Made by a program: the position numbers and the translations under genes
Notes under the pieces: generated by a model
The model's input: only the letters and a program-made list of their open reading frames with translations
The model's database searches: none
What the model was told of the DNA's origin: nothing
Part shown: positions 2,514 to 55,072 of the stretch, piece by piece
Numbering within the stretch: the stretch's first letter is position 1
Layout: each line of letters begins with the position of its first letter
NCBI GenBank assembly: GCA_021826695.1
Contig: JAKAYS010000001.1
Span: 7,175 to 71,174 of the forward strand
Source of the DNA: Acidobacteriota bacterium
GTDB lineage: Bacteria > Acidobacteriota > Terriglobia > Terriglobales > Acidobacteriaceae
Direction: 5' to 3'
DNA length: 64,000 nt

Positions 2514-2515
2514 AC

Positions 2516-30370: not shown

Positions 30371-31593
30371 TGCTTTCTGAATTTGTCCCTTTAGGTGAAT
30401 ACCTATCAGTGCGCGAAGAGCAGCCAGATGCCACCGCTGTTCTCGAAGGCACGATTCCCATCGTTGCGAAGGTTCGGTTCGCGGATGGTGCCATAGAACT
30501 CCGACCTACCAACACAACTCAAACAAAACTCATTCTTGTTCGTCCCGGAGATATTTTGATCTCTGGCATTAACGCACTCAAAGGTGCCATCGCGCTATAT
30601 CCATCGAATGCATCAACGGATATTGCGGCAACAATTCACTACAGTGCCTATAGCGTGAACGAAGACGCCGTGTTGCCCGTCTTCATACACGAATATCTCC
30701 GAAGCTCAAGTTTCAGGAAGCGCGCAGTTGCCCAACTCCCTTCAGGGATAAAGACAGAGCTGAAATCGAAGAGGCTACTTCAAATTCGCGTCCCGAAACC
30801 ATCTAAGGAAGAACAAGAGGCCCGTATACGAGCCCTTTTCGCTAAGCGCCGACGAATTGCAGAACTGTATGCAAGGCGTAAGCCGGAAGGTGCCATGATC
30901 CTGGGTCGCCGCGTTACCGTTGCTGCGGAAGCTCGTCGAGCCATTGCATCCCGCCTAGCTGAATTCGAGAGAGACATTTTGGTTGAATACAAGGTCGGCC
31001 GGCTAGAAGACTACTTGGTCTGCAACCTTCGTCACGGCATTTCAACGCCATGCAGCGCAGACGCAGACGGCCCGCCAGTCCTAATGCCATCTTCAACAAC
31101 CGGGTTTGTTCTAGACACGTCTAGAGTGATGTTCGCTGTCTCTAACAGCGACATCCGGGATGATGATTATCTTGAGCCGGGAGATATCATATTCGCGCGT
31201 GGGAATAAGCCGGATCAAGTCGGCAACTGCGGCGTTTATGAAGGAGAGAGCGGTTGTACAACTTTTGCCAATCTGTTCATGCGCTTACGCATCGATCAAA
31301 AGCAATATCTCCCTTGGTTTGCACAATACTGGCTAATGACACCTTGTGTCAGAGAGCATGTGCGAAAGTTTACCAAGGGGACAGGGCCGTCCATTCAGAA
31401 AATCAATGGGCAAGGCGTAAAAGCCATCCCGTTTCCCGATGCAGTACCTCTTGACGTGCAGACTTCGTGGATCAAACATTTGACCAGTTTCCGGCGAATT
31501 TCCTCTCGCGTTGAATTGCTCCAAGTGCTGCAAGCTAAAGAGTTGGAGATTCTTGCTGAGCGAGTCACCGATGAAGCGTTTTCTGGCCTTTAA
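30367..31593 (+). CDS. hsdS: Type I R-M specificity subunit (two target-recognition domains)
   Basis: 408 aa, 4-nt overlap with hsdM. Central coiled conserved region (EEQEARIRALFAKRRRIAEL) and C-terminal ...ERVTDEAFSGL. Confidence 0.8.
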   Translation: MMLSEFVPLGEYLSVREEQPDATAVLEGTIPIVAKVRFADGAIELRPTNTTQTKLILVRPGDILISGINALKGAIALYPSNASTDIAATIHYSAYSVNEDAVLPVFIHEYLRSSSFRKRAVAQLPSGIKTELKSKRLLQIRVPKPSKEEQEARIRALFAKRRRIAELYARRKPEGAMILGRRVTVAAEARRAIASRLAEFERDILVEYKVGRLEDYLVCNLRHGISTPCSADADGPPVLMPSSTTGFVLDTSRVMFAVSNSDIRDDDYLEPGDIIFARGNKPDQVGNCGVYEGESGCTTFANLFMRLRIDQKQYLPWFAQYWLMTPCVREHVRKFTKGTGPSIQKINGQGVKAIPFPDAVPLDVQTSWIKHLTSFRRISSRVELLQVLQAKELEILAERVTDEAFSGL

Positions 31594-31606: not shown

Positions 31607-31681
31607 ACCGGATTCACCGCCGAACTGGACGCCATGCTCCCCGCTATTCTCGACAGGGCGTTCAAAGGAGAGTTGGTATGA
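31607..31681 (+). pseudogene. Orphan hsdS 3-prime-end remnant (24 codons) whose stop overlaps the ATG of the GHKL gene
   Basis: Translates TGFTAELDAMLPAILDRAFKGELV*, the typical HsdS C-terminal tail. An in-frame stop lies immediately upstream at 31604. Confidence 0.7.
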
Positions 31682-33884: not shown

Positions 33885-35660
33885 ATGAAAATCGCACGAT
33901 TGCGAATCCAGAATTTTCGGGGCATCAAGGAAACAACACTTTTGTTCAACGGGCATGTTGTTCTTGTTGGCGATAACAACGTCGGCAAATCTACTATCTT
34001 TGAGGCCATCGACTTGGCACTCGGCCCAGACCGCCTCAGCAGGCATCCGAAAATCGACGAACACGACTTTTATCTTGGCGACTACCTTACGCCCGCAGAG
34101 CAACCCCGCAAGGAAGTCAAAGTCGAGGTTGTCGTTACCGGCCTTACCGATGAACAGCAGAACGTATTCGGTGACGAAATCGAGTGGTGGAATACGACCA
34201 CGAAGGCGCTTCAGGAAGCCCCCGTCGAAGGCATAGATCAGCCTGACGTGTTCGCGTCGATTCGTGTTGTATTCATCGGGTACTATGACCCGGACGATGA
34301 CGACTTCACTGGCGATACATATTTCGCCCGCAGTTATGAAGACGACGAATCCCCGGCAGTCTTCACGAAAAAGAATAAGCAGTTTTGCGGTTTTCTCTAT
34401 CTGCGCTCTCTACGCACAGCCACGCGCGCGCTCAGTCTGGAGCATGGAAGCCTTCTCGACATCATTCTGCGGATAAAGGAAATCAGGCCGCAGATGTGGG
34501 AAAAGACGATTGAACAGTTGGATAAAGTCAATGTCGCGGCAGACCCGGAAATCGGCATCTCCGGTGTGCTTGAAAGCATTGATAAATCGTTGAAGAAGTA
34601 TGTCCCGCGCGAATGGGGCGTTTCGCCCCATCTCAAGGTCTCCAACTTAACGCGCGAAAATCTACGGAAGGTCATTACCGCATTCATTGCGACGGGCGAC
34701 GGTGAGCACGCCGCGCCGTTCTACCGTCAAGGAACGGGCACCCTGAATATGCTCGTTCTCGCCATGCTGTCGCAGATCGCGGAGGACAAGCAAAATGTCA
34801 TCTTTGCAATGGAGGAGCCTGAAACGGCGATTCCTCCGTATGCACAGAAGCGCATCGTCCATGAAGTTCGGAAATTGTCCTCGCAGTCGATTTTCAGTTC
34901 CCACTCGCCTTACATCCTTGAAGAATTCGCGACGGAGGAAATCAGTGTGCTTATGCGAGGCACGGATTGCGTCCTTCAACAGGCCAGCATAGAACTCCCC
35001 GCGAGCGTGAAACCGAAGCGGTATCGCCAGGAATTCAGAACGCGCTTCTGCGAAGCATTGTTATCGCGGCGCGTTTTACTCGCAGAGGGCGCGACCGAGG
35101 CGGCGACCTTTCCGGTGGCGGCACGACGCCTCTCCGAGCTTGCCCCCGATACCTACGCCTCGTTCGAGGCTCTTGGAGTCTGCACCGTTGACGCAGGCGG
35201 CGACGGTCAAATTGCCGACCTTGGCAAACTCTACATCAATTTAGGAAAATCGGTGTACGCCGTTTGCGACCAACAGGAGCCAGCGAGTCAGGCGAAAATT
35301 GAAGCCAGTGTCACGAAGCTGTTCATGCACGGCGAGTCAGACATTGAAAAACTCGTTTTGAAGAATACGACACAGGCGGCATTAGACAGGTTTATCGACG
35401 CCATTCAATGGCCTCCGCATCTAGTGACAGCCTTCCCCAATCCCAAGTCCAATCCGGTAGACGCTTTGGGCAAATTCTTCGAGTGGTCAAAAGGCAACTT
35501 GGGGTTGGCTGAATTTATCGCGCAATGCAATGAAGCCGAAATTCCTGACTGGATTCGGCAAATGTGCCGCGACTTGCGTGACCTGTGCCAGCCGCCAGCA
35601 CCAGACTCGTCACCGGAGAATGAAACAGTCGTGGAGGCTGACCTTGCTGGAACTGTGTGA
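33885..35660 (+). CDS. gajA: Gabija GajA: OLD-family ATPase/TOPRIM endonuclease
   Basis: MKIARLRIQNFRGI, Walker A GDNNVGKST, ABC-like MEEPETAIPP, TOPRIM LLAEGATEAATFP...VDAGGDG. Confidence 0.85.
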   Translation: MKIARLRIQNFRGIKETTLLFNGHVVLVGDNNVGKSTIFEAIDLALGPDRLSRHPKIDEHDFYLGDYLTPAEQPRKEVKVEVVVTGLTDEQQNVFGDEIEWWNTTTKALQEAPVEGIDQPDVFASIRVVFIGYYDPDDDDFTGDTYFARSYEDDESPAVFTKKNKQFCGFLYLRSLRTATRALSLEHGSLLDIILRIKEIRPQMWEKTIEQLDKVNVAADPEIGISGVLESIDKSLKKYVPREWGVSPHLKVSNLTRENLRKVITAFIATGDGEHAAPFYRQGTGTLNMLVLAMLSQIAEDKQNVIFAMEEPETAIPPYAQKRIVHEVRKLSSQSIFSSHSPYILEEFATEEISVLMRGTDCVLQQASIELPASVKPKRYRQEFRTRFCEALLSRRVLLAEGATEAATFPVAARRLSELAPDTYASFEALGVCTVDAGGDGQIADLGKLYINLGKSVYAVCDQQEPASQAKIEASVTKLFMHGESDIEKLVLKNTTQAALDRFIDAIQWPPHLVTAFPNPKSNPVDALGKFFEWSKGNLGLAEFIAQCNEAEIPDWIRQMCRDLRDLCQPPAPDSSPENETVVEADLAGTV

Positions 35661-37512
35661 TGAGCGTAAGACCATCGTGTCCCACACGGGTCACTTGCTC
35701 ATCAAGGGAGGCCCCGGCTCTGGGAAAACGACCATCTCCATTGTGAAAGCGGAGAGCCTTGTCGCCACGCTCAAGCCCGGTCAGCAAGTATTGTTTCTCA
35801 GCTTTGCGCGCGCCACGGTCGCCCGCGTCATCGAAGCCCTCGCCGAGCAGACGAAAGACAACAAAGAAGTCAGGCGACGTATTGAGATCGACACGTACCA
35901 CGCTTTCTTTTGGCGATTGCTCAAAACGCACGGCTATCTCATCGGATTGCCGCGCCGTATGACCATCCTGACACCACCCGAACGGGCGATTGCGCTGACA
36001 CCAATTCGTCACACCTACGGAAGCGCACGGAAGCTCACTGACACGCAAAAAGCCGAGAAGCTGGGAAAGGAAGAAGCCGAGCTGAGCCGGTTGGCTTTCC
36101 AGGAAGGCAAGGTTTGCTTCGATTTATTCTCGGAGCTTGTTGTCGAACTCGTCAGCAAGAGCGAAAAACTGCGAAAACTTGTTTCTACCCGCTATCCAAT
36201 CATCATTCTCGACGAATTTCAGGATACGAGCGCCGGTCAGTGGGCCGTTATGGAGAACCTGGGTAGCGGCAGCACACTGATTGCCCTCGCAGATGAAGAG
36301 CAGCGTATCTACGACTTCGCGGGTGCAGACCCGGAACGTCTGAATCACTTCAAGCAGAAGTTCGACCCGAAAGAATTCAACTTCGGGTCGGCAAACTATC
36401 GGAGCAACGGAACCGACATAGCTCGTTTCGGCAACGATGTTCTGGCGGGCAAGTTCAGCATGAATAAATATGCCGGTATTGGGTTGGTGAAATTTGCCGG
36501 GAATCCCAATCAGGCTATGGCGGCGCTCAAAGGACAAACCCTTCAGACAATCGAACGACTGCGAAAAGCCAAAGTCAAAGATTGGGCTCTCGCCATCCTT
36601 GTTCCCACCAAACAGCTTATGCGTGAAGTGTCTGATGCACTCCGCGAGACACAGGGCACAATGCCGCCGGTAGAGCACAATGCCGCCATTGACATGGAAG
36701 GAGCCATTCTCGCAGCGGAATTGATTGCCTTCCTCTTACAACCACACCAGGGGGAGGCAGATTTCGCGCAGTTTGTCGGCCTGCTCAGTAATTTCTTTCG
36801 AGGCAAAGGCGGCGATGATCCCTCCGCGTCTGATATCGGAGAAGCCCTTGCAATCGAGAAGGCGCTACAGAAGGCCGTGGAGTGCTTACAGAAGGGGAAG
36901 CCGTTACCGAACAACAGCATCATTAGGCTAATGAAAGAGGGGTGCAACCAGTGCGTTGCGCTCGCGCTCACTGGCAATCCCGGTGTGGATTGGTTGGCAA
37001 TTAGAAAAGTGCTCGGTGATTGCGGTTGCAAACGATTGGCCCAGGTGGCAGAAGAAGCCAGAAATGTCAGGTTGCTGGATAAGGGAACACAACTGCGAGA
37101 GAACCTCTCTCTGGATTGGCGCACAAACGGCGCATATAAGAACGCTCTCGAAATTGTCAGACAAGCGTTCGTTCAGGAGCATTTTTCAACATCGGTCCGA
37201 AAGCAATCCGGCGTGATTGTGATGAACATGCACAAGGCGAAAGGAAAGCAGTTCGATGAGGTCATCATTTTCGAGGGATGGCCGAGGCGAGTGCGCGGCC
37301 AAATTGTTGGAAATCCTCATCGCATCGTGCGTGGGAATATGGACGGCGATCTAACGCACGCCACATACAATTTCCGGGTCAGCGTGACGCGGGCGCGGTC
37401 AAGGACGACGATAATGACGCCAGAAAACGATCCATGCATCCTCCTTGTACTTGCTTCAAGGGCGACAAAGGCGGTGGCAGCCCAAGCGGAAAATGGAACG
37501 GATACGGCATGA
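35620..37512 (+). CDS. gajB: Gabija GajB: UvrD/PcrA-like superfamily 1 helicase
   Basis: KGGPGSGKTT, ILDEFQDTS, MNMHKAKGKQFDEV, VSVTRARS. ATG 35620 overlaps the gajA end by 41 nt. Confidence 0.85.
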   Translation: MKQSWRLTLLELCDERKTIVSHTGHLLIKGGPGSGKTTISIVKAESLVATLKPGQQVLFLSFARATVARVIEALAEQTKDNKEVRRRIEIDTYHAFFWRLLKTHGYLIGLPRRMTILTPPERAIALTPIRHTYGSARKLTDTQKAEKLGKEEAELSRLAFQEGKVCFDLFSELVVELVSKSEKLRKLVSTRYPIIILDEFQDTSAGQWAVMENLGSGSTLIALADEEQRIYDFAGADPERLNHFKQKFDPKEFNFGSANYRSNGTDIARFGNDVLAGKFSMNKYAGIGLVKFAGNPNQAMAALKGQTLQTIERLRKAKVKDWALAILVPTKQLMREVSDALRETQGTMPPVEHNAAIDMEGAILAAELIAFLLQPHQGEADFAQFVGLLSNFFRGKGGDDPSASDIGEALAIEKALQKAVECLQKGKPLPNNSIIRLMKEGCNQCVALALTGNPGVDWLAIRKVLGDCGCKRLAQVAEEARNVRLLDKGTQLRENLSLDWRTNGAYKNALEIVRQAFVQEHFSTSVRKQSGVIVMNMHKAKGKQFDEVIIFEGWPRRVRGQIVGNPHRIVRGNMDGDLTHATYNFRVSVTRARSRTTIMTPENDPCILLVLASRATKAVAAQAENGTDTA

Positions 37513-40500: not shown

Positions 40501-43275
40501 ATGCTGACGATTTCCAAGCCGCTGTCGGCTTCACAGGTGCGAACGTACCATGAGCGGGAGTTTGCCTCTGAGCGGCAGAATTATTGGAGCCGCGATCAGC
40601 AGGGACATAGCGAGTGGCAAGGCAAGCTGGCCGAAAAGTGGGGCTTAGAAGGGCCGGTTGGCAACGAGCATTTTGCCCGGTTGACCGAAGGCCAGCACCC
40701 AGAGACGGAAGCGCAGCTCGTTCGCCATCAAGTCTCAAGAACCTATGAGGGAAAATTCGGTAAGGAAGTGACGAGCGTAGAACATCGCGCCGGTTGGGAT
40801 GCTACGTTCAGCGCACCCAAAAGTGTTTCTCTCACTGCCCTTGTCGGCGGCGATGAGCGCGTGCGAGAGGCGCATCGGGAGAGTGTGCGTGTTGCCTTGG
40901 GAGAGCTGGAACGATACACGCAGGCGCGGATCGGCAACGTCCACGCGCCGGAGACGACAGGCAAATTCGTTGCGGCTACCTTCGAGCACGATACCGCCCG
41001 CCCTGTGGACGGCTACGCAGCACCGCAGCTCCACACCCATGCTGTGATCTTCAACGTCACCGAACGCGATGACGGACAGACGCGGGCCTTGCAGCCGCAG
41101 GAGCTATTCGCGTCGCAGCGTGTTGCTACCAGCCTGTACCGTTCCGAGCTGGCAATGCGGTTGCAGGGCTTGGGGTATGAGCTGGAGCGGGGCAAGCATG
41201 GTCAACCTGAGATCAAGGGCTATACAAAGGAATATCTGGAGGCCAGCAGCCCACGCCGCGAGCAGATCAAAGATCATCTTCGCGAAATGGGTATAAACGG
41301 AGCGGGAACCGCGCAGGTTGCAGCGCACCGGACGCGGGATAGCAAGGAGCTGCTATCGGCGGAACAGGTATTAGAGAGGCATCGGAATCTGGCCGCGCAG
41401 TATGGACATCAGGCCGACCGCGTTGTGGCCGAGGCGCGGGAGCGTGGACAGCGCTACGTTCACAAACCCGCGCTGAATCGGAGCATAGTGGCCGCGCAAC
41501 AGGCCGTCACGTATGCCCGCGATCATTTGTTCGAGCGTTCCGCCGTGCTGGACCGTCGAGACCTGCTGGAAGCTGCGCTCAATCGCGGCATGGGTGAAAC
41601 AACGTATGCCCACGTTCGGCAGGAGTTCGAGCTACGGGCCGCGCGAGGCGAGTTCCGCACAGTCGATCATGCCGGAGCAAGACAGCAGTACACCACTGCT
41701 GCGATGCTCCGCATGGAACGCGAGATCGTCGCACGGATGCAGGAAGGCAATCAGCGCGGGATGAGTGATTCAATGCTGGTGGATGCGCGTATCCGTATGG
41801 CGACGGAGGACCGGCACCCGGAGCTGAATGCCTCGCAGCGTCAAGTCGTTGACCAAGTGTTTCTCTCCCGCGAAAAGATAGTGGGTTTGGATGGTGTCGC
41901 TGGCGCGGGGAAGACAATGACGCTGGCCGTCATCCGTGAAGGCGCCGAGGCGCAAGGGTACACGGTCGAAGGCTTCGCGCCCACGTCCCGCGCGGCGCAA
42001 AAGCTGGCCGATGCAGGCATGGAAACGTCCACGCTGCAAAAACATCTTGCACGCGGCCAGCAGCCGGATACCGGAGAACACCGCCTGTATGTGCTCGATG
42101 AATCCTCGCTCGCATCCACCAAACAGATGCACGAGTTTGTGAATTGCCTACATCCCAACGACCGCGTGTTGCTGGTAGGTGATCGTCGGCAGCATGAGGC
42201 GGTCGAGGCCGGGCGTCCCTTCGCGCAGCTCCAGGACGCGGGCATGAAGACAGTCAAACTCGAAGAGATCGTCCGCCAGAAAAACCCGGAGTTGAAACAG
42301 GTGGTCGAGCAGCTTGCGCGTGGCGACGTGCGCGAGGCCGTGCAAGGGTTGGAGCGGCAGGGCCGCGTACATGAGATTGCAGGCCGCGAGGAACGCATCG
42401 CCGCGATAGCGAAGGAATATGCGAAGTCACCGGAGGGAACGCTCGTCGTCTCGCCCGACAATCGTTCCCGCGTGGAGATCAATGAGCGTATCCATGCAGA
42501 GATGCAGGAGCGAGGCTCAGTAAGTAAAGACGAACATCGCATTCAAACGCTTGTGCCGCGCCAGGACCTCACCGGGCCGGAGCGCACATGGGCCGCGCGC
42601 TATGAGTTCAACGATGTAGTGCGCTACGCGCGCGCGTCGAAAGAGACCAGCATCGAGCGCGGCGAATACGCGCGGGTCAAGAGCGTTGACGCGGAGAAAA
42701 ACCTGTTGACGGTCGTTAGGGCTGACGGCTCAGAGTTGGCCTATGATCCTAGACGGCAGCAGGGCGTTTCTGTGTATCGGGAGGAGCCGCGCAGCTTCGC
42801 CGTGGGCGACCGCATCCAGTTCACCGCACCGGCCAACGATTTGAAGGTTGCCAACCGCGAATTAGGGACGGTCGAGGCCATAGGCCAGGATGGGCAGATA
42901 CGTTTGAAGATGGACGGAGGCCGCAACGTGCAACTCGATCCACGCGAGCATCCGCATCTCGATCATGGCTATGCGGTGACAAGCCATTCCAGTCAGGGAC
43001 AGACTGCCGAGCGCGTATTGATTCACGTCGATACCGAGATGGCCGCGAAAGACCTACTCAACAGCCGCATGGCTTATGTCGCCGTCTCGCGCGGCGCGGA
43101 GGACGCACAGCTTTACACCAATGACCGTGCGAAGCTGCCGGAGGCGTTAGAACATGACGTATCCCACGAGAGCGCCCACATGCCAGCGATAAAGCCGGAG
43201 CAATCCATCAATCCGCCACAACCGGAGATCGCGCCGGTCATCGAACACAGCATGGGCTTAGGACACAGCCTCTAA
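40501..43275 (+). CDS. MobF-family conjugative relaxase (TrwC/TraI-type relaxase plus RecD-like helicase)
   Basis: MLTISKPLSASQVRTYHEREF...YW...GEWQGKLAEKWGL relaxase N-terminus, HDTARPVDGYAAPQLHTHAVIFN His triad, helicase GVAGAGKT, YVLDESS, AVTSHSSQGQTAE. Confidence 0.9.
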   Translation: MLTISKPLSASQVRTYHEREFASERQNYWSRDQQGHSEWQGKLAEKWGLEGPVGNEHFARLTEGQHPETEAQLVRHQVSRTYEGKFGKEVTSVEHRAGWDATFSAPKSVSLTALVGGDERVREAHRESVRVALGELERYTQARIGNVHAPETTGKFVAATFEHDTARPVDGYAAPQLHTHAVIFNVTERDDGQTRALQPQELFASQRVATSLYRSELAMRLQGLGYELERGKHGQPEIKGYTKEYLEASSPRREQIKDHLREMGINGAGTAQVAAHRTRDSKELLSAEQVLERHRNLAAQYGHQADRVVAEARERGQRYVHKPALNRSIVAAQQAVTYARDHLFERSAVLDRRDLLEAALNRGMGETTYAHVRQEFELRAARGEFRTVDHAGARQQYTTAAMLRMEREIVARMQEGNQRGMSDSMLVDARIRMATEDRHPELNASQRQVVDQVFLSREKIVGLDGVAGAGKTMTLAVIREGAEAQGYTVEGFAPTSRAAQKLADAGMETSTLQKHLARGQQPDTGEHRLYVLDESSLASTKQMHEFVNCLHPNDRVLLVGDRRQHEAVEAGRPFAQLQDAGMKTVKLEEIVRQKNPELKQVVEQLARGDVREAVQGLERQGRVHEIAGREERIAAIAKEYAKSPEGTLVVSPDNRSRVEINERIHAEMQERGSVSKDEHRIQTLVPRQDLTGPERTWAARYEFNDVVRYARASKETSIERGEYARVKSVDAEKNLLTVVRADGSELAYDPRRQQGVSVYREEPRSFAVGDRIQFTAPANDLKVANRELGTVEAIGQDGQIRLKMDGGRNVQLDPREHPHLDHGYAVTSHSSQGQTAERVLIHVDTEMAAKDLLNSRMAYVAVSRGAEDAQLYTNDRAKLPEALEHDVSHESAHMPAIKPEQSINPPQPEIAPVIEHSMGLGHSL

Positions 43276-45098: not shown

Positions 45099-45704
45099 TC
45101 AGGCGACACGCAGATGAGATCCCCGATGCACCTCCGCGCCAGGCACGGTTTCCCCATGTCCGATGGCTTGCCTGATCGCTTCGTTATTGGGTATTTTCTG
45201 TTGGGTGGAGGCTAACAGAGCAACTTTGATGTCCTCTGGAAGACATTCCAAAACGGATTCCCAGAGGCTGCCCTGAACTCTGACATCCACTTCCTGAAAG
45301 GCCAGTGGAACCTGTGTCTCATCGATAATGCGCACAGAGTCCTGACTGTTCTTCTGCAATCGCAGAGTGAACTCCCTGCCCTCGATCTTCCTGAGATCGC
45401 GGCTCTTGAGGTAGTACAGCACCATGCCCTTGGTCCTCACGATCTTGTTGTCTGCCGCGCGCGAGCGCTCCTGCAAGCGTGCAGCTTCGTTCTTGCAGTA
45501 CAGCATCCGGGCCTCCATCATACGCAGGAAGCGCCCGATCCGGTCCACTTTCTCGCCGTGGGCTTCGCAGAATTTCTGGAAGCGGCCTATGAGATCCGCT
45601 CCAGCCTCTCCCTGATTTTCAATCTCTTCCTGAATCTCATCGAGAAGCGTGTCCAGTTCCGCGTCGATTTCAAACAACGAGTTTTCCTGAGCGACTGAAG
45701 ACAT
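45099..45704 (-). CDS. Phage-type hypothetical protein (Siphovirus Gp157-like by pattern)
   Basis: Acidic N-terminal helix (LFEIDAELDTLLDEIQEEIENQGE), coiled-coil middle; 201 aa. Assignment from memory of the family only. Confidence 0.35.
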   Translation of the reverse strand: MSSVAQENSLFEIDAELDTLLDEIQEEIENQGEAGADLIGRFQKFCEAHGEKVDRIGRFLRMMEARMLYCKNEAARLQERSRAADNKIVRTKGMVLYYLKSRDLRKIEGREFTLRLQKNSQDSVRIIDETQVPLAFQEVDVRVQGSLWESVLECLPEDIKVALLASTQQKIPNNEAIRQAIGHGETVPGAEVHRGSHLRVA

Positions 45705-46026: not shown

Positions 46027-47094
46027 ATGACCGTCCGCAAAATCGTCCATATCGACATGGACGCGTTTTATGCGTCCGTCGAACAGCGGGATGATCCGCA
46101 ACTCCGCGGCAAACCTGTCATTGTCGCCTGGCGGGGCAACCGTTCGGTGGTCTGTGCCGCTTCATATGAGGCCAGACGTTTCGGGGTACGCTCCGCCATG
46201 CCAGCAACTCGTGCCGCACGCTCGTGTCCCGATGCGGTCTTCGTTCCCCCGGATTTCCCGCGCTATCGTGCGGTCTCGCGCCTGGTGCGCGAGATATTCA
46301 AGCGGCACACGGATTTGGTGGAGCCGCTGTCGCTGGACGAAGCATATCTCGACGTTACCGAGAACAAGATTGGTTTGGCGACCGCTACGCGCGTTGCACG
46401 CGCAATTCGTGACCAAATTCGCCAAGAACTGCATCTGACGGCCTCAGCGGGCGTAGCGCCGAACAAATTTCTGGCAAAGATCGCCTCCGACTGGCGCAAA
46501 CCGGACGGACTCTTCGTCATTCAGCCTGGTGAGGTGGATACGTTCCTGTCGCCACTGCCGGTTGGACGCCTACCTGGTGTAGGCAAAGTGACGGGAGAGA
46601 AGCTGGAGCAGCTTGGCATACGGACGGTGGGAGACTTGCGAGGCTTGGATTTATCGACACTCAAAGGCCGCTTCGGACGTCACGGTCTGCGTCTGTATGA
46701 ACTCGCCCGGGGCCTGGACAATAGCGAAGTCGTCCCAGACAGACCGACACAATCCGTCTCCGTTGAGGACACGTTCGAGCGCGATGTGCCGTTGATAGAA
46801 ATGGAGCCAACGATACGCCGTCTGGCGGAAAAAGCCTGGTCCGCGTCGCGCAAGGAACCGCGCATTGCGCGTACCGTGGTACTCAAACTGAAGACAAGCG
46901 AGTTTCATATTCTCACCCGCAGCCATACCCCCTGTTCTCCTCCCTCTTCTTGCAACGAATTGACCAAAATCGCACTGTCTCTCCGGGAGCGAGTGGACTT
47001 GGGGCCCCAGCAACGCTTTCGTCTGGTTGGCGTTGGTCTCATCAATTTTCGCGAAGCCGAAGATATGCTGATGCAGCCAACCCTTTTCGAGTAA
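46027..47094 (+). CDS. dinB: DNA polymerase IV (Y-family)
   Basis: KIVHIDMDAFYASVEQRDDPQLRGKPVIV, SLDEAYLDVT, ASAGVAPNKFLAKIASD. Confidence 0.93.
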   Translation: MTVRKIVHIDMDAFYASVEQRDDPQLRGKPVIVAWRGNRSVVCAASYEARRFGVRSAMPATRAARSCPDAVFVPPDFPRYRAVSRLVREIFKRHTDLVEPLSLDEAYLDVTENKIGLATATRVARAIRDQIRQELHLTASAGVAPNKFLAKIASDWRKPDGLFVIQPGEVDTFLSPLPVGRLPGVGKVTGEKLEQLGIRTVGDLRGLDLSTLKGRFGRHGLRLYELARGLDNSEVVPDRPTQSVSVEDTFERDVPLIEMEPTIRRLAEKAWSASRKEPRIARTVVLKLKTSEFHILTRSHTPCSPPSSCNELTKIALSLRERVDLGPQQRFRLVGVGLINFREAEDMLMQPTLFE

Positions 47095-48210: not shown

Positions 48211-49431
48211 CTAGGCCGATTCCATTGGGACCACCTGACCAAATGGCGCGTGCCTCGACTCAGTCGAAGCCCACAGCACGGGGTAAGCCGGGACCGCGCT
48301 TGGGAAGGTGCCATTGAGATCGGTGAGGAAGACCAGCGTCTGAGGCACAATACCGTTCTCATCGAGCCATTGGAAACAGGGCCGGAAGTCCGTTCCTCCT
48401 CCGCCCTTCGGTTGGAGCTGGATCGGTTGACCAGCCTCATAGGTATCAACCTTGTGGACGAGAGCGTCGAAATAGAGAACATGCGTCCGCTGTGGTCGCT
48501 GCCCTTCAAGGATAGAGCGGATCTCCGCTTCAAAAAGCCCTAACTGGCGAGCGCTGACAGAGCCGGAACAATCGACAGCAATGACGATCTCGCCCACTCC
48601 TTCGCGCACGGTTCCGGGCAAATACAGTCCCGCCCAGATATGGCGTCGATTGGGGCGCATCCAGCTATAATCTGCGGGAGCTGTATCCGACCAAAGCCTG
48701 CGCAACAACTCACGCCAGTCGACCGCAGCTTGTGCGGCTTTCTCGATGCTGCGTTCGAGACCTGCAGGAACTTTCCCAGCCAGCTTCGCAAGACTCTCCG
48801 CTTGTTCGACCGCAATCTGCCAATCCCGAGCCTGTTCGGACAAGTTCTTCCCATCGGCTTCTTCTGCCAAGGGTGCATCGAGAACCTGACCAATCCCGCC
48901 GGGTGTTATGGGGGCACCGGGGCCGTCTTCTGATCCTCGTTGTGAGCTTTCTCCGCAGCCTCCGCTCTCGGATGGATGCTCCGAGTTGTTTGAAGTTTCG
49001 GATTTCTGCTGGCTCTCTTGTTCGTCCTGGCCGAGCAGGTTGTAGATACGCTCCGCGCTCATGCCGCGGAAGCGGTTGTCGAGGAGCACGTCTTTCGGCA
49101 AGGTCAATCCGGCATCGACAAGCAAAGGGTTGATGGCATAATCGCACGCGATGTTCCAGCGATTGAGGGAGCGATCGGCGCGCCGGGTGTGGTGTTGCAG
49201 CGCCGGATGCATGACCTCGTGAGCCAGGACTCCCGCCAGTTCACCTTGAGAAAGTGTCGCGACGAACTCGGGGTTGTAGAACAGCGAGACGCCATCGGTC
49301 GCCATGGTTTGGATCGATGGCCGCTCCTGCCCTTTCAATCGAAACAGGAGCGAACCGAAAAAGGGATGATCGAGCAGAAGCGCGGTGCGCGCCTTCTGGA
49401 TTCTGAGAGCGGTGCTGGATTCCTTGTTCAT
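48211..49431 (-). CDS. VWA-domain protein with N-terminal HExxH metallopeptidase-like domain (DUF2201-type), module A
   Basis: DHPFFGSLLF, HEVMHPALQH, IACDYAIN. MIDAS-like IAVDCSGSV and FLTDLNG. Confidence 0.75.
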   Translation of the reverse strand: MNKESSTALRIQKARTALLLDHPFFGSLLFRLKGQERPSIQTMATDGVSLFYNPEFVATLSQGELAGVLAHEVMHPALQHHTRRADRSLNRWNIACDYAINPLLVDAGLTLPKDVLLDNRFRGMSAERIYNLLGQDEQESQQKSETSNNSEHPSESGGCGESSQRGSEDGPGAPITPGGIGQVLDAPLAEEADGKNLSEQARDWQIAVEQAESLAKLAGKVPAGLERSIEKAAQAAVDWRELLRRLWSDTAPADYSWMRPNRRHIWAGLYLPGTVREGVGEIVIAVDCSGSVSARQLGLFEAEIRSILEGQRPQRTHVLYFDALVHKVDTYEAGQPIQLQPKGGGGTDFRPCFQWLDENGIVPQTLVFLTDLNGTFPSAVPAYPVLWASTESRHAPFGQVVPMESA

Positions 49432-50372
49432 GCCGCAGCGGGCGCCTCCATGTACGCCGACATATGAGAAATGATGTCCTCGGCCGTCGGAGTGTCTGGA
49501 TCCTCTGTCGAGGCTTTGGCCTTTCGGTCATGCAAGACCTCATCCATCGCGGCGACAATCTCCGCCGCCTCCGATGCCGTTGCCACGCGTAGGATTTCGT
49601 TCCTCTTGAGATCGCGGGCCGAGTAGTTGCAGAGACGCTCCTTGATCTGCGCCGCGAAGCGGTTCAACTCGCCGTCCTGATTCACATTGAGACGCGGCAG
49701 GAGGTCGACCAGATCGAAGACGTTGGTGACGAGCGAAGCATGGAAGCGTGAATCTGGCTCGTTCAGCCGGTCGACCATGTGGGAAACCACCTCTCGAAGT
49801 CGCTTCCAGAGATCGTCCGTTCCGCGAGCGAGCGACTCACGGACATTCCGGTCGATCTCACGAGCGACGCGTGTCTGCTCCTCTGCTGAGAGGTTGACGC
49901 GGAAATCTTCGCCCGTTGGAATGGGCAGGACTTCCAGCTTGACAGCAAACTTCTCCCGCAACTTGTCGGCAGCGGGATAGTCTTCTTCGCGAAAGAGGCC
50001 GTTCAGTTCCGGACGCACCTGCTCGATGTAGGACGGGTACACCGCGAGAAAGTCTTCGACGCCCTGGGAGAAGCCCGTCTCGAACTCCCGCATCTGCTCC
50101 GCCAGCTCGAAGTAGAGGTGTGCCGGCAACAGGCGGAACCCCTCGTCCGACCACGGCAGGGTGATCTTGTAGAAGTATTGGCGAATCTGTCCGGCGAGAG
50201 TGCGCAGATGCTCGAGCTTCTCCGCGCCCATCAGGAGTTGCTTGTTGTATCGGCCCGCGCCCGGATGCGCTCCATGTTGGCTGGCGACATCGTGGCTGAC
50301 TTTGCGATCGTGTTTGACCGCCGTCCAGATGCTGATATGGATCACGGCAAGCATGGCCCGTTCGGTAATCAT
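49428..50372 (-). CDS. Helical hypothetical protein (DUF3150-like by pattern), module A
   Basis: 314 aa with ATGA overlaps on both neighbours. N-terminal MLAVIHISIWTAVKHDRKVS. Confidence 0.45.
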   Translation of the reverse strand: MITERAMLAVIHISIWTAVKHDRKVSHDVASQHGAHPGAGRYNKQLLMGAEKLEHLRTLAGQIRQYFYKITLPWSDEGFRLLPAHLYFELAEQMREFETGFSQGVEDFLAVYPSYIEQVRPELNGLFREEDYPAADKLREKFAVKLEVLPIPTGEDFRVNLSAEEQTRVAREIDRNVRESLARGTDDLWKRLREVVSHMVDRLNEPDSRFHASLVTNVFDLVDLLPRLNVNQDGELNRFAAQIKERLCNYSARDLKRNEILRVATASEAAEIVAAMDEVLHDRKAKASTEDPDTPTAEDIISHMSAYMEAPAAA

Positions 50373-51379
50373 TGAATGACCTCCGCATGTTCGACACCGA
50401 AGCGAATGAACTCCGGCGTGAAAGTAATGGCGCGATCCCGCGCCGAGGCGTCGCGCATGGCCAGCACGCGCATCTCTGTGGGCATCCGGTCGAGGTACTT
50501 GATCCCATTGGCCAGGGAGTGATCGGTCATGGCCCGGCCGAGGGCCGTGGCGATGGCAATCTGTGCGGATGGCTCGTTGGGAAGCGGCGCAGTCTCCGGG
50601 TTCAACAGGATCTCGTGAATCGACGGCAACTGACGGAACAGCCGCAGGAACGCGACGAACTCAGTGGCCGCCGCAGGCCCGATCGTCCCTTCGAGGAGTT
50701 GGACTTCGATCTCGTTCGCGCCGGACAGCAGGCCGTTCTTCTGCCGGTACGAGAATCCATTCAGCACATTCGACGCCATCTCCCAGGAGCGGGGAGTGGG
50801 CCATGCGTTTGCATCCGACGTTGCGTCCCCATCCTGCAGCAACGCGGGCTTGAAGCGAAGGAAAGCGATGACTTCCGGCCGCACCTTCGCCCGAACCGCC
50901 CACTTGCACCAGTCTTCGAGATCCGCATCGAGGTTGAGGTGAACGAACCGGTTGCGAAGGGGCCGCGGCATCGAGAAGTGAACGCCGCGCTCCGAGGCTG
51001 GGTTCCCGGCGGCAATCACTACCCACTCTTCGGGCAGGACATATTCACCCAGTCTGCGATCGAGCACGAGCTGATAACAGCCGGCCTGTGTCATTTGCGG
51101 CGCCGAGGTCAGCTCATCGAGAAAAAGAATTCCCTTGCCCGAGGTTGGAAGAAATTTCGGGGGTACCCATTCGGTCCGATCGGAAGCAATGCGGGGCAAT
51201 CCGCGCAGATCGACTGGATCGAGTTGTACGGCGCGAATGTCGAGGAAGTTCAGATCGAGGTCGTTTGCCACCTGGGAGACGATCTGCGACTTACCGACGC
51301 CGCAGGCACCCCAGATGTGCAGAGGCACACGTTCCGCTATCAGCGCATGGAGCGCTTCATACAGCATGCTTGGTTTCAT
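50369..51379 (-). CDS. MoxR-like AAA+ ATPase, module A
   Basis: Walker A WGACGVGKSQ, Walker B ILFLDELTSA, AAGNP, RNRFVHL. Confidence 0.8.
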   Translation of the reverse strand: MKPSMLYEALHALIAERVPLHIWGACGVGKSQIVSQVANDLDLNFLDIRAVQLDPVDLRGLPRIASDRTEWVPPKFLPTSGKGILFLDELTSAPQMTQAGCYQLVLDRRLGEYVLPEEWVVIAAGNPASERGVHFSMPRPLRNRFVHLNLDADLEDWCKWAVRAKVRPEVIAFLRFKPALLQDGDATSDANAWPTPRSWEMASNVLNGFSYRQKNGLLSGANEIEVQLLEGTIGPAAATEFVAFLRLFRQLPSIHEILLNPETAPLPNEPSAQIAIATALGRAMTDHSLANGIKYLDRMPTEMRVLAMRDASARDRAITFTPEFIRFGVEHAEVIQ

Positions 51380-51632
51380 GAATTGTCCTTGTTGGTTTGG
51401 GAGAGATGGTGAAGAGGAGCGAGGATTACGTTTTCCGTTGCAGTGCTCAGACCTCTTTCGGAGAGGAACTCATTCAGGCCGCGACCGGGAGGCGACGCCG
51501 CACAGACAGAGCCGGCAAGTCACGCCACCGCTCCCACCGTACTTTGCGTGCAATGGGAACCTCGTTCAAACTCCGCGTTCAGGAGTCAGGAGTAAGCAAC
51601 AGTGGCACCGGAGGCTACGTCCATCCTTGCGC

Positions 51633-52046
51633 TCATGGCTGGTCTTCGTTGTGGCCCTTCAAATCTTGCGGTCCCTCCACCTCGGGAATTCGAAACGACT
51701 GCACCGCGCGTCTCTGGGAGGCCGTCAATCCATTCATCCAACTGCGGATCGGCATCTCGCGCAAAAAATCCGCTGGCGTAAGGATCGCCTTCATGTCTTC
51801 GAGGATATGGACCTCGGCAATCGTCCGCGTCGCAACCGCGCCTCCGTCAGATGCCCGTTTGTAGAGGTCTCCGAAGAACTGTTCGCAGAGTGCGACACCG
51901 AAGGTCGTGTGCAGCAGCGCCCGGTGACGCCAATCCGCCAGATAGAGCTTCGACTGGTCGAGAAATTTGTGGATCGCCACATAATCTTCCGGTGTTCCTC
52001 CAAACCGGCGCGCTGAAGACTCGCTGTGGAACTGAACGTTACCCAT
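51633..52046 (-). CDS. Hypothetical 137-aa protein, module B
   Basis: FHSESSARRFGGTPEDYVAIHKFLDQSK...WRHRALLH. Starts 3 nt after the upstream stop. Confidence 0.45.
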   Translation of the reverse strand: MGNVQFHSESSARRFGGTPEDYVAIHKFLDQSKLYLADWRHRALLHTTFGVALCEQFFGDLYKRASDGGAVATRTIAEVHILEDMKAILTPADFLREMPIRSWMNGLTASQRRAVQSFRIPEVEGPQDLKGHNEDQP

Positions 52047-52049
52047 GCC

Positions 52050-52799
52050 TCAATCTCCTCTCAGAAGAAGCTGCTTCGCTTCGGCCGCCGTTCCATGCTC
52101 AGTCAGAATCTGGACGAGTTCCTGACGGGCCTCGGCGAGTTCGTGAAAACTAGGCTTCTGGATGGTGTAATCGACCGTGCTGGGCGATTCACAGTACCCG
52201 CTGGCACGGCCCGACGCTCCGTCGTTGTATTCCAGGTGAAAACCGACCGGCCAGTTCCATTGCAGACCGAGATCGATCAATTCTCGAAGGGTATCTTTGG
52301 TCGCATCCGAAATCTCGCCGTCTTCCATCAACTCACAATAGTCATCGACACAGGCGGACTGATTTTCGGTGGCCGCGTTGATGGTTACGCCAACTTCTTC
52401 CCTGGAGCCATCCCAGATGGAAGGGAAGGCATAGAGGACCAGCCGGACAACTCTCTCTAGTTCCTCCTCACTGCCGCTCTCGAAGGAGAGAGATTCGCTG
52501 CCGTAGTCGGCTTCGCGAAGCACCCGGTCCTCATCGAGTTGATCATTGATCTCGTCCCAGAAGATTTCGGTTGCGTGGTCGTGAAGGACCTCATCGCGTT
52601 TTTCCGGATCGAGTCCGTCGAGGATCGATGGTTCCCAGGAAAAGGCAATCTCTTCGTCTCCGTACTCGAGGTCCTTGCAGGTCCCACTTCCGTCCATACG
52701 GTAGGAGAATTGAAATGGTATTTCCTCGTACTCACCGACATCGACCCGGATCGAATAGACGACGGCTTCCGGGGAGCATGACTCAACTTCAGTATTCAT
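52050..52799 (-). CDS. Strongly acidic 249-aa hypothetical protein, module B (the ORF-track N-terminal extension to 53213 is rejected)
   Basis: ATG 52799 overlaps the VWA-2 stop (ATGA). Sequence is rich in D/E (EYGDEEIAF, DEINDQLDEDRVLREADYGSESLSFESGSEEELE). Confidence 0.55.
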   Translation of the reverse strand: MNTEVESCSPEAVVYSIRVDVGEYEEIPFQFSYRMDGSGTCKDLEYGDEEIAFSWEPSILDGLDPEKRDEVLHDHATEIFWDEINDQLDEDRVLREADYGSESLSFESGSEEELERVVRLVLYAFPSIWDGSREEVGVTINAATENQSACVDDYCELMEDGEISDATKDTLRELIDLGLQWNWPVGFHLEYNDGASGRASGYCESPSTVDYTIQKPSFHELAEARQELVQILTEHGTAAEAKQLLLRGD

Positions 52800-53992
52800 A
52801 AGCCTCCTTTGGCAGGCAGCAAGAGTTTGCGTCCGAATGGCACCGCAAGGTCCTGGGTGGCCGCCCACAACAAGGGGAAGGCGGGCTTCTTTTCCGGGAA
52901 GGCGCCTTCCAGATCGGTAAAGTACACGGCAACGTCGAGTGGAACGCGACGCAGTGCTTCGAGGGCGGGTCGGAAATCGGTGCCGCCTCCGCCCCTGGCC
53001 ACATATCCCTGAATCGGCTTCCGATGCATGGACACTTGCTGGACGCGAGCATCGCAATCGACCAGCAGGACCTCGCATCCCGTCCTGGTCATCAGGCTGT
53101 TGATCTCGGAGATAAAAGTATGGAGAAGCTTGTCGCCGATGGAGCCGGAGGTATCGATCACGACACCGGCACGGCGGACTCCCCGACGGCGATCCGTGCC
53201 GGGTTCCATCCAAACGGCATCTTTCCCCAAGGCAAGTGTGCGCCGGCTTGGGCGATTCCAGGATGCTTCGGTCAGAGGCATCAGCCGCGCCGTCAGAAAG
53301 TTCCTCAATACCGCCTCCCAGCGCACAACGGATTTCGGTACATCCGCCGCAAGACGCCGTAACAAGGATGCGGGAGCCGAACCGGCCTGGGCGCGCAGCA
53401 ATCTCTGCCGCCAGATGCCCTGTTCCAGGCTCTGCTCGTGAACTCCAGGCGCCGGAAAAGACGCTTCGCCCGCGCTGTCAAGATCTCCTCCGAGGATTCG
53501 ATCTCCGTTGCTGAGAATCTCGTCGCGCCTCTTCTCATCGCGTTTGACCTCGGCGTAAAGTTCCTCCGCCGTCCAGAGTTCCGCGGGCCATTGCTTCAAC
53601 TGTTCCGAGGCGAGGCAGTCCTCGGGGTACAACGCTCCCGACGGCAGCGCGCACCAGTGGCAGGCGCGGATCGAATGATTGATGACGGCGTCGCACGCGA
53701 TGTTCCAACAGCGGCCATCGAAGGCGCTTCCTTCGCGGTTCGCCAGCGCATCACCCCGTTGCACATGCCGGAGCGCGACATGGAGTGCCTCGTGAATGGC
53801 AATCGCCACCTGCTCTTCGGGCTTGTACTCGAAATAGCGCTCGGCAAAATACATCCTTCTGCCATCGGTCCAGGCAATACGTCCTCGATCGGTGACGGTC
53901 ACGGCGGGAACATACAGCAGAATGCCCGCCAGTCCGACATCTTTGCTGACGGCGCGCCGCAGATTGCGGGAAAGCATCTCCTGGGTCGTCAT
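52796..53992 (-). CDS. VWA-domain protein with N-terminal HExxH metallopeptidase-like domain (DUF2201-type), module B
   Basis: AIHEALHVALRH, IACDAVIN, MIDAS-like VVIDTSGSI, YFTDLEG. Paralogue of 48211-49431. Confidence 0.75.
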   Translation of the reverse strand: MTTQEMLSRNLRRAVSKDVGLAGILLYVPAVTVTDRGRIAWTDGRRMYFAERYFEYKPEEQVAIAIHEALHVALRHVQRGDALANREGSAFDGRCWNIACDAVINHSIRACHWCALPSGALYPEDCLASEQLKQWPAELWTAEELYAEVKRDEKRRDEILSNGDRILGGDLDSAGEASFPAPGVHEQSLEQGIWRQRLLRAQAGSAPASLLRRLAADVPKSVVRWEAVLRNFLTARLMPLTEASWNRPSRRTLALGKDAVWMEPGTDRRRGVRRAGVVIDTSGSIGDKLLHTFISEINSLMTRTGCEVLLVDCDARVQQVSMHRKPIQGYVARGGGGTDFRPALEALRRVPLDVAVYFTDLEGAFPEKKPAFPLLWAATQDLAVPFGRKLLLPAKGGL

Positions 53993-54001
53993 AGGCCGCT
54001 C

Positions 54002-55072
54002 CTAGTGAACCAACTCCTGCGCTTTGCTGCGGTAGACGCGCTGATAGGTCTCGGATCGGGTCAGCGCCTGAAATTGGTTGGTGCGGTGGGCCTTGCCAAG
54101 CAGCAACTCCATGCCCAGCGACTGGATCTCTCTGCGCGGCAGCGCATCGGAGATCTGGCTGACCGCCTCCAGCAGTTCGATGCCCTGCTCATACTGCGCG
54201 AGCTTTGAGGTATATCGAACGAGCGAGTACGTGAGCCCGTAGAGGCCAGGCAGCGTTGCCGGCACCTTTCGTGCGGCTTCTTTCGCAGGCAGGCTGAGCA
54301 GCTTGTCGATCGGGGGCAATTGACCGATCTCTTCGAGGGTGTGAAAAAACTGCACGGCTACAGCCTCTCCCACCAGTCCGTTGACGGCGATTGAGCGCAC
54401 GCGCTTATCCTTGGTCGCCTCCAGCACACGGGATACGCGGGTCCAGGAGCGCGGGGATGGCGTGACCAGTTGCTCGGTCTGCTCCTGGCCGCCGCAACTA
54501 TCGAGCATCTCCGGGCGGACTCGGAGAAAGGTAATCACCTCGGAGGCAATTGAATAATTCATCGCCCACTCCATCCAGTCCTCCGGATTCGCCACAACAT
54601 TGAGGTGCACGAACCGGTCCGCAAGCGCGGTTCCCATCCCATAGCTCACGGCCCCATCCTCGGGAGCATTGCCGGCGCCGACCACCCATGCCTGATCGGG
54701 AAGGCGATGTTTGCCGATGCACCGATCGAGAATGAGCTGATAGGCCGAGGCCTGAATGCGGGGCTCTGCCGCAGTCAACTCGTCCAGGAAGATCGCAACC
54801 GGAGTATCGATCTCGGGAAGGAACTCCGGCCGCATCCACTCTGTCTGTCCGGTTTCGTAGTTGATATGCGGTAGGCCGCGAAGGTCGCAGGATTCCAGCG
54901 TCGTCAGGCGCACGTCGATCAGATCCATTTTGTTGGTCTGCGCATACTGCCGGATGAGGTCCGATTTTCCGATGCCTGGTTTTCCCCAGAGGAACACCGG
55001 CATACGAAGGTCATAAGCCGTCGGCAGAAATCTGGCGACTTCTTTGGGGCTGCTGGGTAGCGTATTCAGCAT
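54002..55072 (-). CDS. MoxR-like AAA+ ATPase, module B (start moved to ATG 55072)
   Basis: Walker A WGKPGIGKSD, Walker B IFLDELTAA, GAGNAP, ADRFVHL. Paralogue of 50369-51379. Confidence 0.8.
   Translation of the reverse strand: MLNTLPSSPKEVARFLPTAYDLRMPVFLWGKPGIGKSDLIRQYAQTNKMDLIDVRLTTLESCDLRGLPHINYETGQTEWMRPEFLPEIDTPVAIFLDELTAAEPRIQASAYQLILDRCIGKHRLPDQAWVVGAGNAPEDGAVSYGMGTALADRFVHLNVVANPEDWMEWAMNYSIASEVITFLRVRPEMLDSCGGQEQTEQLVTPSPRSWTRVSRVLEATKDKRVRSIAVNGLVGEAVAVQFFHTLEEIGQLPPIDKLLSLPAKEAARKVPATLPGLYGLTYSLVRYTSKLAQYEQGIELLEAVSQISDALPRREIQSLGMELLLGKAHRTNQFQALTRSETYQRVYRSKAQELVH

Follow-up and report, generated by a model that had tools for sequence, protein, structure and literature searches.

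The Acidobacteriota contig JAKAYS010000001.1 (assembly GCA_021826695.1) carries, within a stretch of 64,000 nucleotides which is referred to here as the window, two neighbouring gene modules, A and B, each of which encodes a MoxR-like AAA+ ATPase and a zinc metallopeptidase fused to a von Willebrand factor A (VWA) domain together with one or two accessory proteins. The modules lie on an integrated mobile island, and their ATPase-protease core pair is homologous to gp24 and gp25 of phage N4 and belongs to a family whose members are concentrated on a wide variety of mobile elements. Each module may be an element-encoded, ATP-driven protease machine of the N4 gp24/gp25 type which serves counter-defence or establishment against the host, a reading that has about the same chance of proving right as of proving wrong. 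The core pair itself is of a known but uncharacterised kind, being represented in Pfam, in PHROGs, in RefSeq annotation, in two comparative papers and by one phenotype in a preprint.

Organisation of the two modules

All seven genes are encoded on the minus strand. Module B starts with a MoxR-like AAA+ ATPase of 356 amino acids (B1, positions 54002-55072 of the window, matched by AAA_5 and phrog_1297), followed by a zinc metallopeptidase-VWA fusion of 398 amino acids (B2, 52796-53992, matched by DUF2201_N, DUF2201 and phrog_1314), an acidic protein of 249 amino acids (52050-52799) and a DUF6915 protein of 137 amino acids (51633-52046; PF21866 at E 5.4e-35 and phrog_8143 at 2.3e-35). An intermodule gap (51380-51632), in which tblastn places the minus-strand relic of a Mom-like gene at 51477-51569, separates it from module A. 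The latter consists of a second MoxR-like AAA+ ATPase of 336 amino acids (A1, 50369-51379, AAA_5 and phrog_1297), a remote DUF3150-family protein of 314 amino acids (49428-50372) which is identified through relatives that match PF11348, and a second metallopeptidase-VWA fusion of 406 amino acids (A3, 48211-49431, DUF2201_N, DUF2201 and phrog_1314). A script check found an ATG start in all seven open reading frames (ORFs), and the strong profile matches indicate that they are real genes rather than chance ORFs, so that the seven genes listed by a first-pass annotation of this DNA stand as they were drawn.

From B1 to A3 the junctions measure +9, -4 (an ATGA overlap), +3, 253 (between the modules), -4 and -4 nucleotides. 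The ATGA overlaps are also kept in close acidobacterial relatives, while more distant triads have intergenic gaps of roughly 10-130 nucleotides instead. The overlaps and short gaps that had been described within the modules are therefore real, whereas the fixed stoichiometry that had been read from them goes a step further than the junctions do, the distant triads being spaced by gaps. A scan of the locus for promoters and terminators returned no more sites than it did in shuffled sequence.

The sequence motifs that had been reported for both modules were reproduced by script. Walker A reads GKPGIGKS in B1 and GACGVGKS in A1, and Walker B reads AIFLDE and ILFLDE, respectively. The HExxH motif is HEALH at residue 67 of B2 and HEVMH at residue 71 of A3, and in both it extends to a longer zinc motif (HEALHVALRH in B2, HEVMHPALQH in A3). 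The metal ion-dependent adhesion site (MIDAS) is complete in both VWA domains, with DTSGS...T...D in B2 and DCSGS...T...D in A3.

Family assignment of the core pair

Both ATPases pass the 22-bit Pfam cut-off of AAA_5 (A1 with E 1.1e-06 and 29.2 bits, B1 with 6.4e-07 and 29.9 bits), both fall below the cut-off of AAA_3, and B1 scores 25.8 bits on bpMoxR, just short of the cut-off of 27, while A1 gives no match to that profile. The phage family phrog_1297 matches them over their full length (A1 7.9e-96, B1 1.6e-77), and the closest solved sequence to A1 is the AAA domain of Midasin (E 8e-06). The partner proteins match phrog_1314 with nearly full profile coverage (A3 2.6e-99, B2 8.9e-52) and contain two Pfam domains in the expected order, namely DUF2201_N (A3 1.2e-56, 192.7 bits; B2 2.5e-35, 122.9 bits; cut-off 23.2 bits) and DUF2201 (A3 3.1e-26, 92.3 bits; B2 6.9e-25, 88 bits; cut-off 26.4 bits). 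These profiles, taken with the gene content of the island, bear out the description of the modules as MoxR-AAA+ and VWA-metallopeptidase pairs on a mobile island.

In an alignment of A3 and B2 with a Burkholderia plasmid protein, gp15 of Roseobacter phage CRP-7 and gene 0055 of phage Bas52, which thus spans an integrative and conjugative element (ICE), a plasmid and phages, the motifs HExxHxxxxH and NxAxDxxIN and the complete MIDAS (DxSxS...T...D) are invariant, including the positions H71, E72, H75, H80, D287, S289, S291, T347 and D371. The closest solved sequences to the protease part are an M48 peptidase (3c37, E 2e-4) and the minigluzincin MJ1213, and those to the VWA part are Ro60 and integrin I-domains; no solved structure was found for any member of the metallopeptidase-VWA/MoxR family.

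The metallopeptidase-VWA protein is commonly labelled as an 'HNH endonuclease' or 'homing endonuclease', both in PHROGs (phrog_1314) and in phage records such as NC_023719.1 gp576, NC_071039.1, OR805292-5 and the OZ19xxxx Vibrio phages. The alignment of its homologues contains nothing HNH-like, and the label is probably a propagated misannotation.

Scans of the seven proteins against PADLOC-DB 2.0 and NCBIfam matched no defence-system model, which agrees with the earlier statement that no experimentally named defence or anti-defence system is known to have this composition. The sole match is a 40-residue P-loop stretch to IetA/IteA (E 0.002-0.004, 16 bits), for which the NCBIfam cut-off is 510 bits.

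Distribution and earlier descriptions

By tblastn, at least 695 phage records (Escherichia, Pseudomonas, Vibrio, Klebsiella and others) contain relatives of the metallopeptidase-VWA protein, and 863 contain relatives of the ATPase. The metallopeptidase-VWA protein also has relatives on 124 plasmids, 31 of them conjugative and 31 mobilizable, and at least 578 contigs proved to encode relatives when one genome per species was scanned with a sequence pattern. A megablast search against plasmids gave no DNA near-identical to the locus.

Among phages, the pair corresponds to gp24 and gp25 of N4 (Schitoviridae) and is also present in V5-like and jumbo phages. The family matches are full-length (E 1e-52 to 1e-99), the two phage genes are adjacent or nearby and the extended zinc motif and MIDAS are retained. 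The window differs in that sequence identity to the phage proteins is 24-35%, the third phage gene is different or absent, and two divergent copies with accessory genes are found on an integrated acidobacterial element. In N4-like phages, gp24 (no assigned function) and gp25 (annotated as vWFA) are middle genes and constitute two of the 14 core genes (Chan et al., PMC4193335). The homologues in phage LUZ7 are annotated as 'N4 gp24-like' and 'N4 gp25-like' and lie beside helicase and DNA polymerase genes. In jumbo phages, a pair of a MoxR AAA+ ATPase and a vWA protein with an N-terminally fused metallopeptidase has been described and proposed to act in virion assembly and proteolytic processing, with tail assembly of the Acidianus two-tailed virus (ATV) as the precedent (Iyer et al. 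2021, PMC7824862). On RefSeq plasmids the module A-type triad is labelled ATP-binding, DUF3150 and VWA-like. Literature searches on DUF2201, DUF3150, DUF6915, TOTE with MoxR, and von Willebrand with anti-defense found little or nothing, a single paper being met that names DUF3150, and these families go unmentioned in the polyvalent-protein paper. With the N4 pair, the jumbo-phage description, the RefSeq triad and the Bas54 anti-defence phenotype set out below, the modules can no longer be called undescribed as they were by the first-pass annotation.

Genetics of the homologous pair in phage Bas54

Phage Bas54 (MaxBurger, MZ501093.1) encodes homologues of both core proteins, gene 0063 corresponding to A1 and B1 and gene 0055 to A3 and B2. 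The 0063 protein is 35% identical to A1 over 250 amino acids (E 1e-39), the same closeness as between A1 and B1. The product of 0055, annotated as a 'putative metallopeptidase', is homologous to A3 over its full length, as a comparison with the Bas52 orthologue showed (E 3e-28). To overcome DS-28, a two-gene system of E. coli CFE311 that is predicted to act in defence, Bas54 needs two genes, one of them being bas54_0063 (described as a 'MoxR ATPase'); with 0063 deleted, the phage becomes sensitive to cloned DS-28 (HIDEN-SEQ preprint, bioRxiv 10.1101/2025.11.20.689424). Both 0063 and 0055 are non-essential in K-12, where insertions were recovered in 60 of 64 and 81 of 86 TA sites, respectively (Extended Data Table 8, 10.1101/2025.11.20.689424). 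Resampling of K-12 versus CFE311 gives a log2 fold change of -7.23 for 0063 (adjusted p about 0) and of -2.20 for 0055 (p 0.0009, adjusted p 0.009), which places both among the 27 significant genes, with the authors silent on 0055 (10.1101/2025.11.20.689424). Unlike the genes of the window modules, 0063 and 0055 lie 8 genes apart on opposite strands of a coliphage genome, and what is known of them comes from a preprint. The other gene reported to be required, bas54_0140, was considered as a partner of the ATPase and rejected, as it is an unrelated early gene of 99 amino acids.

Gene neighbourhoods of relatives

The genomic context of the family was surveyed in 80 related genome loci (numbered with the prefix L), in which ORFs were clustered and recurrent clusters annotated. 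The order AAA+, DUF3150-like, VWA-protease on one strand recurs in Acidobacteriota and in Alpha-, Beta-, Gamma- and Deltaproteobacteria. The VWA gene is present in all 80 loci, the DUF3150-like gene in 68 and the ATPase gene in about 62, many of the shortfalls being situated on short or truncated contigs. Inserts of 2.5-8 kb separate the triad genes in some relatives (among L023, L033, L061 and L080-L090).

Genes of the PRTRC cassette (PRTRC_E, ThiF and Prok-E2_D) lie a few kb upstream of the triad in L022, L028, L030, L036, L043, L047, L049, L058, L072 and L094, which include acidobacterial relatives of module A. The same succession of PRTRC cassette and triad occurs on the conjugative plasmids pBcp895-1 of Burkholderia and pRK1-1 of Cupriavidus, whose triads comprise the same three families in the same order as module A; the records NZ_CP015038.1 and NZ_CP062805.1 (Burkholderiaceae) hold this arrangement. 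This linkage is conserved and of a higher order, and no description of it was found. Unlike these plasmids and ICEs, the window contains no PRTRC cassette, and module B lies upstream of module A in its place. Downstream of the triad, acidobacterial relatives (L019-L058 and others) encode RNase H and then Sipho_Gp157; overall, Gp157 was detected by tblastn in 33 of the 80 loci and the RNase H cluster in 23. The window departs from this order: between the VWA gene and Sipho_Gp157 (45099-45704, minus strand) it has an inserted PIN/RHH pair and DinB (46027-47094), and an RNase H homologue (18790-19185, minus strand) is found 29 kb away beside the integrase.

Other neighbours comprise RES toxin, Mom-like, phage Dam-like+GNAT, AEP-TOTE primase, sigma-70 factor, Tn7-like TniQ, TniB and transposase, integrase and HsdM genes, and on the non-mobilizable plasmid pSYSA of Synechocystis the pair sits among toxin-antitoxin genes. 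Of the 61 loci that span 12 kb or more, at least 44 contain a marker cluster of this kind, and a pooled Pfam scan of the remaining loci found integrases, P22 portal, transposase, AbiJ, SLT and flanking host regulators. Neither the window nor the 80 genome loci nor the inspected loci of plasmids and phages contain a client operon of the CobST, CbbQO, NorQD or CoxDE kind. Such a housekeeping or cofactor-operon context had been named beforehand as the outcome that would speak against a conflict role; the homologues reside on phages, plasmids, ICEs and transposons rather than in housekeeping operons, which makes a role in conflict plausible.

Accessory proteins

The 249-residue protein of module B is indeed acidic, as first described, with a pI of 4.08, a net charge of about -42 and 59 aspartate and glutamate residues against 17 lysine and arginine residues. 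It has no match in Pfam, PHROG, PADLOC or NCBIfam and only 69 detected homologues. The charge suggested a DNA mimic, and this idea was rejected for lack of structural support: the AlphaFold2 model of the protein is confident (pLDDT 89.6, pTM 0.75), and a Foldseek search with it gave no fold match in the PDB (best E 0.12) or in BFVD (0.03). The order of AAA+, VWA-protease, acidic protein and DUF6915 is kept in distant elements (L099-L101) at 36-40% identity; these B-type elements also encode an AEP-TOTE primase, TSCPD, RecA, PolB and Prok_Ub, with ribonucleotide reductase nearby. DUF6915 also occurs by itself in 127 phage records, among them large phages of Streptomyces, Bacillus (Tsamsa-like), Gordonia and Sinorhizobium. 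A fixed partnership with the pair in phages was rejected, given that its carrier genera are mainly Streptomyces, Bacillus and Gordonia, outside the main genera of the pair, and from its distribution DUF6915 looks like an independently mobile small gene with no obligate tie to the pair.

The 314-residue protein of module A does not reach the Pfam threshold of DUF3150 (E 0.027, 14.2 bits against a cut-off of 24.9), although this sub-threshold match is co-linear, with residues 52-184 aligned to profile positions 50-180. Its assignment as a remote DUF3150 member rests on its relatives, 18 of 39 of which (33-58% identity) match PF11348, the best at E 3.7e-10; several relatives from the profile search carry a precomputed PF11348 assignment as well. 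Of the profiles proposed at the outset, AAA_5, DUF2201_N and DUF2201 were thus recovered directly and DUF3150 by way of relatives. The family of the 314-residue protein amounts to 6817 clusters at 50% identity. Its AlphaFold2 model (pLDDT 81.7, pTM 0.46) has a small sheet and long helices, and a profile search against PDB sequences gave weak apolipoprotein-like noise only. An iSTAND-like interpretation of this protein was dropped, as there was no match of any kind.

The tandem arrangement

The two modules had been called paralogous, and they are related, but distantly so: A1 and B1 share 35% identity, A3 and B2 share 29%, and the middle proteins are unrelated. The Mom-like relic in the gap is a tblastn match of 31 amino acids (48-52% identity) to residues 235-265, the C-terminus, of a Mom-like protein whose gene is intact just upstream of an A-type ATPase in the loci L045 and L048, and which Pfam Mom matches at 3.2e-05. 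The relic shows that modules B and A were brought together by a deletion and are separate units. The block of B and A is present in several contigs of metagenome-assembled genomes, in one of which (L001) the modules are split by a gene of 436 amino acids without a Pfam match (6421-7731). Module B adjoins module A in only 2 of the 80 related loci.

Proposed function and alternatives

In the favoured counter-defence or establishment reading, the operon would be expressed when the element enters a cell or is induced. The MoxR-type AAA+ ring, with its intact Walker A and B motifs, would dock onto the VWA partner in the manner of other MoxR-VWA pairs, and the MIDAS site would capture an acidic residue of a host target. 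ATP-driven remodelling would then feed the target to the fused zinc protease, which resembles M48 peptidases and minigluzincins, and lead to its cleavage. The accessory proteins, namely the DUF3150-like protein in module A and the acidic orphan and DUF6915 in module B, may serve as adaptors or regulators that set target specificity or restrain the protease. Two modules with about 30% identity and different accessory genes would imply two different targets. The scheme builds on the domain composition, the invariant catalytic and MIDAS residues, the gene order, the restriction to mobile elements and the phage genetics, and it extrapolates from them to a physical coupling of the proteins, to proteolysis, to the kind of target and to what the accessory proteins do.

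This reading is the most economical since it accounts at once for the spread over mobile elements, the retention of the key residues, the dispensability of the pair in a permissive host and the requirement for it against DS-28. ArdC and a TrwC relaxase are encoded on the same element in the window and provide supporting context. ArdC is a single-stranded DNA-binding and metalloprotease anti-restriction protein. Its protease belongs to a different family, MPTase-PolyVal, yet ArdC, like IetAS, joins an ATPase or DNA-binding module with a protease in element-host conflict.

Several observations weigh against this reading. The functional evidence comes from one preprint on a homologue with 24-35% identity in a host of a different phylum, and DS-28 is a predicted system only. 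The protease gene 0055 is much more weakly depleted than the ATPase gene 0063 and was not followed up, which leaves room for an ATPase that acts without the protease. Anti-defence genes normally belong to the variable accessory gene pool, so that a place in the universal core, as the pair has in N4-like phages, is unusual for them. The modules of the window are surrounded by defence cargo (Qat and toxin-antitoxin pairs) and lie 5-12 kb past the 3' end of the relaxase gene, with ArdC about 23 kb away. Foldseek found no fold match for the acidic protein in the PDB or BFVD, nor one for the 314-residue protein in the PDB, and for all family members the target, the complex and the protease activity are putative.

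The strongest alternative, though an unlikely one, is that the pair forms a chaperone or maturation machine for a complex of the element itself (replisome, ribonucleotide reductase, relaxosome, type IV secretion system or virion), with the peptidase processing a precursor. Characterised MoxR-VWA pairs are assembly or activation chaperones (PMC7159879), and RavA-ViaA, CbbQ-CbbO, NorQ-NorD, CoxD-CoxE, CobS-CobT and the ATV pair share with the window modules the logic of an AAA+ protein and a VWA/MIDAS partner, but they lack a fused protease and sit with the genes of their client enzymes. Core status in N4-like phages would fit a basic function, as would the helicase and DNA polymerase genes beside the LUZ7 pair, the primase, TSCPD, ribonucleotide reductase, RecA and PolB genes near B-type modules, and the virion assembly and processing role proposed for the jumbo-phage pair. 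Both Bas54 genes are, however, dispensable for plaques on K-12, which argues against a role in virion assembly or replication in that phage, and the observed phenotype is specific to one host defence system. Furthermore, the phages, conjugative plasmids, ICEs, Tn7-like transposons and pSYSA that encode the pair have no structural or replication machinery in common.

It is less probable still that the modules are defence or exclusion cargo, in which a MoxR-vWA-peptidase system senses an invader and triggers proteolysis that protects the host or excludes rivals. The island carries Qat, Gabija, type I restriction-modification, a GmrSD-like gene and toxin-antitoxin pairs, and the combination of MoxR, a vWA-peptidase effector and a third protein resembles the MoxR-vWA ternary conflict systems (Kaur, Burroughs, Iyer and Aravind 2020) and the MoxR-vWA-iSTAND systems, which are predicted to act in cellular defence against invaders, mainly in multicellular prokaryotes. 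B1 comes close to the bpMoxR cut-off, though below it, and IetAS, a known defence pair, likewise combines an ATPase with a protease. Against this, no VMAP, beta-propeller, FtsH-type or iSTAND-like component was found here by Pfam and Foldseek, and PADLOC and NCBIfam gave no defence match, the homology to IetAS being limited to the P-loop and IetS being a serine protease. The window family resides on phages and plasmids, the core pair of strictly lytic N4-like and V5-like phages is hard to square with anti-phage defence, and the sole genetic phenotype is one of counter-defence. Of the two readings that the first-pass annotation had left open, an establishment or anti-defence function of the element is thus favoured over a defence system, and a role in conflict stands as plausible.

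That the modules serve housekeeping cofactor insertion of the CobS/CobT, CbbQ/O, NorQ/D or CoxD/E type and lie in the island by chance is very improbable, for although MoxR/VWA pairs often serve metal-centre insertion and both ATPases match the CobS-like phrog_249 ('porphyrin biosynthesis') weakly (E ~1e-8), the surroundings of about 90 homologous loci contain no operon for a target enzyme, the conserved protease domain of the VWA partner is lacking in those systems, and the family is concentrated on mobile elements.

The surrounding island

The genomic context that had been outlined for the modules (dinB, toxin-antitoxin pairs, Qat, ArdC and a relaxase) is present in full in the window. Its first part, up to about 15 kb, consists of core genes that include FeoB, a PabB-like chorismate-binding/aminotransferase enzyme, MetE and ribonucleotide reductase, and the integrated island starts at about 18.8 kb; no tRNA was found at its edge. 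The source names of near-identical proteins place the host in the Acidobacteriaceae. The early part of the island encodes RNase H, an integrase, a GmrSD_N-like gene (20880-21635), an IS110-family transposase (21753-22832, minus strand) followed by an ORF of 334 amino acids, ArdC (24408-25499) and a PIN/RHH pair. The GmrSD_N-like gene and the 334-residue ORF, which together with the transposase span 20880-23944, may be a type IV restriction gene that was split by the insertion sequence.

The middle part comprises a type I restriction-modification system (26416-31593), a HATPase_c protein of 667 amino acids (31678-33681), an intact Gabija system on the plus strand (33885-37512, with GajA at 33885-35657 and GajB extending to 37512), the TrwC relaxase (40501-43275), a Crp-like regulator and PIN toxin-antitoxin pairs. 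GajA is 100% identical to the copy in L018. Sipho_Gp157, DinB and the two modules follow, then small uncharacterised genes and QatDCBA, which runs from 60082 to the window end and is recognised by PADLOC at E 1e-80 to 1e-198. In the core-genome part, a TPR-CHAT protein of 822 amino acids directly precedes an S41 peptidase that contains PDZ and Tricorn_C1 domains (45-3838, plus strand), and the two may constitute a protease-based conflict or signalling pair.

Implications

It is new to recognise that N4 gp24/gp25, the B-type tetrad and the DUF3150 triad of ICEs and plasmids all belong to one family. To this are added the linkage of the triad to PRTRC, an acidic orphan component without a detectable fold match, a rare tandem of divergent modules and, for Bas54, a depletion of the protease partner on which the authors had not remarked. 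The locus represents no categorically new system but a good, testable lead on a very widespread family.

A broader proposal, which is tentative and rather more doubtful than the function suggested for the modules themselves, is that the pair is a machine common to phages, plasmids, ICEs and transposons which destroys host immune proteins by ATP-driven proteolysis. Its interchangeable third proteins would act as adaptors, a tandem such as that of modules B and A would be a two-target battery of counter-defence, and on conjugative elements the machine would work with the PRTRC ubiquitin-like cassette. As the catalytic, MIDAS and Walker residues do not vary, clean point mutants suggest themselves and the family is directly testable, and Bas54 and DS-28 are a phage-defence pair already in hand. 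Likewise, the linkage of the DUF3150 triad to PRTRC offers a way into this long-unexplained cassette. Should the counter-defence reading of the modules hold, two core genes out of the 14 of N4-like phages would receive a function, as would a gene set that hundreds of phages and plasmids carry and that is represented in thousands of protein clusters. Anti-defence would gain a new mechanistic class, in which an ATP-driven protease with adaptors contrasts with small stoichiometric inhibitors, and the strategies of phages would be connected with those of conjugative elements.

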